NCBI GenBank assembly: GCA_964016885.1 | Contig: OZ024742.1 | Coordinates: 354,020,001 to 354,084,000 of the forward strand | Length of the DNA: 64,000 nucleotides | DNA from: Eledone cirrhosa | Lineage: Eukaryota | Direction of reading: 5' to 3' | Shown here: piece after piece, positions 33,483 to 34,867 of the stretch | How positions within the stretch are numbered: the stretch's first letter is position 1 | How the letters are laid out: every line of letters begins with the position of its first letter | The notes under the pieces: model-generated | What the model was told of the DNA's origin: nothing | The model's input: the letters and a program-made list of their open reading frames with translations, nothing else | The model's database searches: none | Translations under genes and position numbers: made by a program

Positions 33483-33647
33483 GGAAGAAGACGCACGAGG
33501 TGACGGAGGTCATGAAATCGCTCCCGTAAGTTTTGAATTTTTAACATATTTAAATCATTTGTGAAATAACAACTCTTAGTACAAATGCTACGTAAAGCAC
33601 CCGGCTTGAGCCCCACAAAAATTCGGACCCAAAATATATTGTTATAA

Positions 33648-34296
33648 GGCTCAAATATTCAAATATTCAACTTTGTATTGTACACTGTATATCCAAAAAA
33701 AAATGGCTATAAATGGAAGAAGAAGAACCCCCCCCCCCCCCCTCCTCTCCTCTGGCTACACTATATAGGACAGCTAAACTCACCAACACCAGAAACTAGA
33801 TACACCACCCACCCCATCATCTGTGTACACTAAACACAACAGCATTTTCACCTTCACCGCCACCGCTCACTACGGCCATCATTACCACCACTATCCCATC
33901 ACCGCCGCCACCACCCCTTGACTCATTCACTGCTGCTGCCACCGCTACAGCACCATCACTACAGTAATACGGCTCAAATATTCAAATATTCAACTTTGTA
34001 TTGTACACTGTATATCCAAAAAAAAATAAAATGGCTATAAATGGAAGAAGAAGAACCCCCCCCCCCCCTCCTCTCCTCTGGCTACACTATATAGGACAGC
34101 GAAACTCACCAACACCAGAAACTAGATACACCACCCACCCCATCATCTGTGTACACTAAACACAACAGCATTTTCACCTTCACCGCCACCGCTCACTACG
34201 GCCATCATTACCACCACTATCCCATCACCGCCGCCACCACCCCCTGACTCCTTCACTGCTGCTGCCACCGCTACAGCACCATCACTACAGTAATAC
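33648..34296. repeat. ~324-bp near-perfect tandem duplication in the Dong-A 5' UTR
   Basis: 33648-33970 is repeated at 33971-34296, with gg at the junctions. Confidence 0.93.
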
Positions 34297-34867
34297 GGTC
34301 GCATCACCGCCACCACTGCCTCGGTATCGACATCACCACCACCACTGTCTCAGTATCGCCAACGCCGCCAGTCTCTGCTGGCTACCACTTCCACATTATA
34401 GAATTCCTACTACTAACAAAGAGGAAGGCATCAAAATATATAGATAGACTCAAAAGAAAAAAGAAAAAACAAACAACAAAAGCAGCACAGCAACAACAGT
34501 AAAAAACGAGAAAAACAGAGAAAAACAAAAACAAAAAAAGAAACCCCAAAAACGTAAAGAAAATAAGAATGAAGAGAGAAGCAGGCGGACGGACAGAGAA
34601 GAGGGGGGAAGAAGTAAAACTTAAAAAACAAAAACTAAGTCAGACATTCGAATACTACATTACAATGAAACTTATGCTTATTCATTTTTGGGGCCCTTTC
34701 TGCCCGTGTGTTTGTTTGTTTATGTGTGTCCGTATACAGCGTGGTGATAATGCCACACAAGGGCCAAGTGGGATGGCGGATCCACAGATGGCTATGTAAA
34801 CATACATTCGCCAATCCTCGATAAGAGTGTTTAAATATCGAACATAAACAGTTCGAATAACGGTGAA

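Follow-up and report, generated by a model that had tools for sequence, protein, structure and literature searches.

A 5' head passed between distant Dong-type LINEs of Eledone cirrhosa and its weak family-level similarity to Tx1-like 5' UTRs

The window considered here, a stretch of 64,000 nucleotides from the 3.0-Gb genome of Eledone cirrhosa, carries four elements of Dong type, designated Dong-A, Dong-B, Dong-X and Dong-Y, and two Tx1-like elements on the minus strand (Table 1). Dong-A has the organization of the R4/Dong group, with a single ORF, a reverse transcriptase (RT), a zinc knuckle and a PD-(D/E)xK motif at the C-terminus, and no APE. A Pfam-type domain search of its ORF returned RVT_1 (E 1.9e-22) and matched no APE family, and among solved structures the RT is nearest to R2 proteins (E 3e-25, against 1e-14 for L1 ORF2p). 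Dong-B of the window is an older relative of Dong-A. The Tx1 organization is seen in Tx1a, in which an ORF1 of 698 aa with a CCHC knuckle is joined to an ORF2 with APE and an L1-type RT; PF03372, RVT_1 and zf-RVT were all matched, and the best PDB match is L1 ORF2p (E 4e-42). The names Dong and Tx1 are given by structure and target site, not by tree; the name Dong also leans on an N-terminal motif, which we take to be that of the group, and Tx1-like families b to f are linked through ORF1 similarity only. Also present in the window are a Penelope-like element (17806-19426) with RT plus GIY-YIG pieces, and an abundant SINE-like repeat of ~185 nt (56558-56737, with further copies at 24832, 45421, 47868 and 62631), which inserts in TTA orientation, is found within Dong-C and Dong-X leaders as well, and contains no tRNA recognized by ARAGORN.

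Table 1. Coordinates of LINE features in the window.
Feature	Position	Strand	Remarks
Tx1a 5' UTR	7471..7686	-	698-aa ORF1 and APE-RT ORF2 come next
Dong-X, 5'-truncated copy of a distant lineage	7715..11356 (about)	+	full-length copies have a Dong-A-type head
SINE-like tail fragment within Dong-X leader	about 7898-7947		
(AAT)n target microsatellite, 5' of Dong-A	33410..33482	+	
Dong-A	33483-38336	+	near-intact RLE element
Shared ~220-nt head, ending in A-run and ATG (33703)	33483..33705	+	homologous to Dong-B, -C and -X heads; similar to Tx1-like 5' UTRs
Motif GCTCCCGTAAGT	33520..33531	+	also in Tx1d/e heads
Two tandem copies of a ~323-nt unit	33641..34289	+	comprise the close of the head, an upstream ATG and low-complexity P/T-rich DNA
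Rest of low-complexity leader and A-rich stretch	34290..34640	+	without significant ORF1 protein similarity
Pre-ORF segment	34641..34867	+	Dong-A/B/C only; stable fold at 34740-34875 (z about -3)
Dong-A ORF	34868..37753	+	RT; open for 961 aa; frameshift near the C-terminal zinc knuckle in the window copy
Dong-A C-terminal part, PD-(D/E)xK-type restriction-like endonuclease motif	37681..38262	+	by eye; without Pfam match
(AAT)n 3' of Dong-A	38337..38395	+	
Dong-B copy, leader	50887..51369	+	start and junction as in Dong-A; ~440-nt internal deletion
Dong-Y, third lineage	55950..59374	+	different leader; 5' limit approximate; negative control
Tx1b 5' UTR (copy with deletions)	62248..62448	-	

The outline of the Dong-A leader given by the first-pass annotation holds: the element begins directly after the (AAT)n tract, an A-run with ATGGCT closes the head, P/T-rich and then A-rich sequence lies downstream, and the Dong ORF starts where it was placed. 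The motif GCTCCCGTAAGT in the head contains GTAAGT, presumably a 5' splice-site-like element. The ~323-nt unit, with window copies at 33641-33963 and 33964-34289, is variable in number and occurs one, two, three and four times in 3, 22, 4 and 1 of 30 Dong-A copies, respectively; the upstream ORF of the window leader extends for 21 aa only. The leader had been proposed to be a family trait, and it is one. All 30 loci fetched by the leader continue into the same Dong pre-ORF segment, and 30 loci fetched by the ORF start yielded 17 with the full head, four in which the leader exceeds the end of the locus, nine truncated within the leader and none with a different 5' end, so that full-length copies lacking the leader are not the rule. 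The start is sharply fixed, falling within 4 nt of one position in 16 of the 17 full-length copies. The copy at 50887 does have the first ~56 nt (p=0.001) and the junction in common with Dong-A, as had been stated; what lies between is shortened, the leader measuring 485 nt while most start-reaching family-B copies have one of about 870-970 nt, hence the internal deletion in Table 1. The same head is carried by a third subfamily, C. Locus L130 was considered as a non-autonomous family and rejected, because 20 of 30 related loci continue into the Dong pre-ORF segment, which places it in subfamily C. Across the family, Dong leaders are 0.9-1.9 kb long, and copies are 99% identical, so the families are young. 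Near-identical pieces of Dong-A occur in contigs of two other organisms, one of which also has Dong-X pieces; none among the matches listed there bridges head and ORF.

It is clear that this ~220-nt head is common not only to Dong-A and the close subfamilies B and C but also to the distant Dong-X, the RT of which is 41% identical to that of Dong-A over 494 aa (28% in the N-terminal part). The head is present at 24 of 30 Dong-X loci, four of these belonging to one tandem array, and the six loci without it are consistent with 5' truncation. (The array, L204-L207 at G000:C28:114.44-114.46 Mb, has a period of about 4955 bases.) Dong-A and Dong-X heads are 0.83-0.85 identical across three X heads (0.79 for L173), compared with 0.69-0.71 between A and B and 0.71-0.73 between A and C, whereas over the first 330 nt of the ORF A is 0.90-0.94 identical to B/C. 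Dong-Y is 44-47% identical to X and 31-39% to A, and X is thus nearer to Y than A is. In a tree of 34 heads, unrooted and star-like at depth, the Dong heads form one shallow branch (99/100) in which those of Dong-A nest among those of Dong-X (100/100). This arrangement conflicts with the relatedness of the ORFs, as judged by pairwise identity, and the conflict rules out vertical descent. Movement of the head between Dong lineages is therefore well supported at the level of sequence; the swap with the best support is that between Dong-A and Dong-X, which the first-pass annotation had missed. The simplest reading calls for at least two transfers, the order of which depends on the root.

The relationship of this head to Tx1 is a more delicate matter. 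The alignment of the Dong-A start with that of the first Tx1 copy, on which the first-pass annotation had built, is present but weak (local score 36 for 250 x 250 nt), and it is not among the matches listed when the window was compared with itself by sensitive blastn at E<1e-4. Shuffled controls gave partial support, with 4 of 1000 dinucleotide shuffles scoring as high against Tx1 copy 1 (p=0.005) and p=0.16 for copy 2. The individual words cited at the time did not survive multiple alignment: the Tx1b counterpart of 'cttgagccc' lies ~35 nt further downstream and is no positional homologue, X heads lack this word at Dong-A's position, and the GACGGAGG match near the start is a peculiarity of subfamily A. 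The decayed ORF1 thought to follow the head was likewise not recovered, since a protein profile of the Tx1 ORF1 core start performed no better on 10 Dong leaders than on shuffles; tblastn with the Tx1 ORF1 core found no Dong leader among the matches listed, and the P/T-rich low-complexity DNA occurs in Dong-Y too and is not diagnostic. Dong-B and one Tx1b copy also show a peptide likeness, AKTC-x7-EE, which was discarded, being missing in A, C and X and not above shuffles.

What persists of the proposed relationship, when six Tx1-like families are compared with four Dong subfamilies, is a weak similarity at the level of families, not of quoted words. The Tx1 set comprised 20 heads from families a-f, which have homologous ORF1 cores, and 14 of 17 chosen Dong heads were aligned, three missed by the start pattern having been left out. 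Because a 10-nt Dong motif had served to find families d and e, tests were run both with and without them; families a, b, c and f, found without the motif, provide an independent profile. In multiple alignment Dong and Tx1 heads are collinear and in register up to the ATG, which lies at 201-230 nt in those Tx1 heads that yielded the motif and at 214-229 nt in Dong heads. With bias correction off, the independent profile beat dinucleotide shuffles in 300 of 300 trials for each of A, B and C and in 298 of 300 for X; for local shuffles the corresponding figures were 298, 300, 300 and 281 of 300. The profiles are also specific within 814 kb of fetched (redundant) DNA. Besides Dong, only Tx1 heads exceeded 8 bits with the Dong-head profile (best 24.8 bits, best other sequence 7.8), and Tx1 profiles matched, besides Tx1, only Dong heads, the six-family profile giving 43.9 bits for C (E 4e-8) and 7.1 for the best other sequence. 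Global-alignment z values were 5.4-6.2 for A with e, 4.8-4.9 for A with a and 4.0-4.8 for C with a-d, compared with -0.3 to 7.3 among Tx1 heads and -1.2 to 2.0 for the control Dong-Y, so that end to end Dong aligns with Tx1 about as well as Tx1 families align with one another.

The signal is nonetheless fragile. Once composition is corrected for, Dong-A falls short of significance, at -4.9 bits on the independent profile and E 1.3 on that of all six families, and the best C head reaches E 0.11 on the independent profile; under bias correction genome-wide significance is retained by C only, B being marginal. Masking the 10-nt motif leaves C at E 0.013-100, B at E 170 or worse and A and X at about 3 bits or less, and without Tx1 family d no Dong score exceeds 8.2 bits. 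Genuine Tx1 heads may likewise fail the shuffle test with the independent profile, in which the held-out Tx1b copy of the window obtained no score and Tx1f 7.4 bits. On balance the head probably derives from a Tx1-like 5' UTR, by a similarity that is weak and leans in part on one 10-nt motif. Two smaller observations concern these same regions. Dong-A and its X-like relatives disagree around 33510 and at 33605-33614, where the Dong-A words match Tx1a (TGACGGAGG, in register) or Tx1b (CTTGAGCCC, out of register), which may reflect chance, convergence or later small conversions. A hairpin at the Tx1 3' end (L140:5541-5627) registers weakly on the Tx1 5' UTR profile (7.1 bits), a possible likeness between the 5' and 3' stem-loops.

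Among the alternatives, the one that survives best is convergence upon a layout imposed by the host, comprising a downstream core element, an early GTAAGT, an AT-rich spacer and an A-run before the ATG; the exchange among Dong lineages would stand, and nothing would have come from Tx1. Unrelated insect LINEs have a downstream promoter element in common (PMC4748587). Dong-Y, which resembles the others in gross design and is unrelated in sequence, has a GAAGAAGA start, GTAAGT near +50 and ATGG after an A-run without any profile match, and the shrinking of the signal under correction and masking, together with the failure to detect an ORF1 relic, also fits such an origin. Against it, the likeness runs in register over most of the head (profile positions 25-223 in the C head C_L142, and 54-223 with the motif masked) and outlasts local shuffles that preserve regional composition. 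Dong-Y, a control of the same design, stays at background, and the known convergent element is 4 nt long, not ~200. Convergence is thus judged unlikely, if still deserving of serious consideration.

If the likeness is one of descent, as we favor, its direction has to be considered. Divergence among the Tx1 heads is deep, their ORF1 cores being 30-60% identical, and in all six Tx1-like families the head precedes a homologous ORF1. The ATG of the head begins the 698-aa ORF1 of Tx1a, whereas the frames it opens in 14 Dong leaders span just 3-46 aa, and Dong-Y is without the head altogether. From the depth of the heads, the ATG with its ORF1 and the condition of Dong-Y we infer passage from Tx1 to Dong. 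These observations also weigh against a common third source, whether a host gene or an extinct element, and against Tx1 having taken the head from Dong: the head stands before homologous ORF1s in every Tx1-like family, is missing from a lineage nearer to X than A is, and has an ATG that serves as an ORF start in Tx1 only. The head tree, which does not resolve at depth and has no root, and the want of a donor leave such origins some room, and we regard them as improbable. As to the donor, none of 100 distinct head contexts, from loci mostly found with Dong queries, leads to a Tx1 ORF1 core (74 lead to A/B/C, 20 to X and six are unresolved). A (TTA)n-anchored donor pattern returned Tx1d, Tx1e and a few Dong heads among the 100 listed of 324 overlapping matches, and a further (TTA)n-anchored pattern found Dong-type heads only in its 19 matches. 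The Tx1 copies of the window are not the donor of the Dong head, and the right junction of the captured segment was not located.

A fixed start, together with conservation exceeding that of the middle of the leader, suggests that the head likely acts as an internal promoter. That the leader is instead a passenger, Tx1-derived DNA from a nested insertion copied along while transcription comes by upstream read-through or from another site, is very improbable, for although leaders do gain inserts (the SINE-like tail in X, an internal (TAA)n in C), the 5' end is sharply fixed at dispersed loci, the head is the better conserved part, and a ribozyme fold defining that end was not found. Rfam scans returned no ribozyme family, and no family of note for the pre-ORF segment; a descriptor of our own for the HDV-like fold, used without a positive control on five segments, gave no match. 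The pre-ORF fold, a stable three-way structure just upstream of the start codon in A and B, differs between them by G-C/G-U or paired changes, B having GTG where A has ATG, and is possibly a translation element or a ribozyme relic, to judge from structure prediction. A spliced-leader arrangement, in which the donor of the head would be joined to the acceptor-like site at 34739, was tried and rejected, a pattern search finding no genomic copy of the joint; nor was any GT..AG joint seen among the contig matches listed. Towards its right end, the leader shared by Dong-B, -C and -X (7723-7775 in the window) has a conserved box that contains TATAAATA, followed about 30 nt downstream by CA, a spacing that resembles that of TATA to initiator; the box is degraded in Dong-A. 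The leader of Dong-Y (55950-57600; L215, L216, L219 and L223) is long, with a duplicated head module, and has, besides its GTAAGT, a polypyrimidine tract plus AG upstream of the ATG; it likely contains a 5' UTR intron and possibly represents a separate capture.

Dong inserts in (TAA)n: 83 of 100 distinct heads have TAA repeats in the preceding 30 nt, in the window such repeats stand on both flanks, and Tx1a has TTA repeats upstream of all 28 scored starts from 30 loci. The first-pass annotation had held that the two groups share one target. The repeat is indeed the same, but it is used on opposite strands, so sharing alone does not explain the capture. Next to 94 Tx1 heads (a redundant set) a neighboring Dong lies on the opposite strand, 5' of Tx1, in 44 cases versus one on the same strand, and sense-strand nesting of Dong in the 5' part of Tx1 was found at none, for which reason capture by such nesting was rejected. 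Because insertion on opposite strands makes neighbors mostly opposite, read-through would take the wrong strand, and capture more probably came about by template switching in the course of reverse transcription. That 5' parts are joined and exchanged in this genome follows from several observations: short 5' duplications at loci L028 and L030; a chimera at a single Tx1 locus (L172, about 2000-2850) in which the 5' UTR and ORF1 start of family d sit on the ORF1 core of family e, with the joint in an Asn-rich stretch of ORF1; a Dong-X copy (L185) with a leader start 95% identical to the Dong-A head; and the SINE-like tail, which 24 of 30 X leaders carry as a fixed feature. As a separate matter, (AAG)n tracts follow (AAT)n beside Dong (11466-11545 and 38394-38476, and upstream of L192, L186 and L173) and often lead straight into the GGAAGAAGA head start; slippage at the 5' end of Dong may produce them, in which case Dong would generate compound microsatellites.

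The account we lean towards, with somewhat better than even confidence in it as a whole, is that the head was captured once from a lost or unfound Tx1-like element, likely as a promoter, and was afterwards moved between Dong lineages. The Dong reverse transcriptase, having arrived at the 5' end of its RNA, would switch template to the 5' part of Tx1, either RNA or DNA, and so add the Tx1 UTR and the start of ORF1, the latter then decaying into low-complexity leader. The captured head would replace the ribozyme-and-read-through route known from silkworm Dong and from R4 of Ascaris. Subsequent template switching, or recombination within the low-complexity leader, would have transferred the head between X and the B/C lineage, and to A from X. 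A larger interpretation, somewhat less likely than not, is that an RLE lineage gave up ribozyme release for the promoter of an APE LINE with the same microsatellite as target, and that this module now travels among Dong lineages that are ~41% identical, each swap feeding a burst of copies. Promoter replacement is known within mammalian L1, with donors that are often unknown; a case crossing the divide between RLE and APE elements would, if true, name the donor group, indicate that LINEs with a common target also trade regulatory parts, and explain how Dong could be transcribed from dispersed microsatellites though its studied relatives rely on a 5' ribozyme. As the families are young, the idea is open to experiment.

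Parallels with known elements are instructive. Dong of Bombyx mori likewise targets TAA microsatellites, and both it and Ascaris R4 combine an RT with a C-terminal restriction-like endonuclease (PMC3774820; PMC3812793). Both have a self-cleaving, HDV-like ribozyme at the 5' end (PMC3774820), unlike the elements described here, which have a leader of 0.9-1.9 kb with a Tx1-like head and in which our own descriptor found no HDV-like fold. In Octopus vulgaris, Dong-R4 belongs to the LINE groups with the highest recent activity (PMC13282606). Kibi and Koshi, of the Tx1 group, are two-ORF APE elements residing within microsatellites, as are the Tx1-like elements here; their targets are (TC)n and (TTC)n, and here the target is (TTA)n, on the strand opposite to that of Dong (PMC4494074). 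SINEU elements have also gained new 5' heads by template switching that became fixed in the family, although these are non-autonomous and carry snRNA heads, whereas here an autonomous LINE would have taken the UTR of another LINE (PMC4494074). The LINEs jockey, Doc, G, I, F, SART1 and TRAS1 have a DPE in common across groups, likewise a 5' promoter motif, but that is a convergent motif of 4 nt and not ~200 nt of collinear similarity (PMC4748587). No report of a Tx1 head on a Dong/R4 element was found in the literature covered, which lies outside subscription journals and Repbase. The closest parallel is mammalian L1, in which the 5' UTR tree conflicts with the ORF tree, co-existing families exchange 5' regions repeatedly, tandem units in the 5' region vary, and template switching has been proposed (PMC3600994; PMC2881922). 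The Dong 5' region conflicts with ORF relatedness in the same manner and has variable tandem units of its own. In mammalian L1 the donors are older L1 families or unknown, whereas here an RLE element with a single ORF is the recipient, the donor is likely to be an APE-type element from a different group, and the lineages sharing the head are ~41% identical in their RT.
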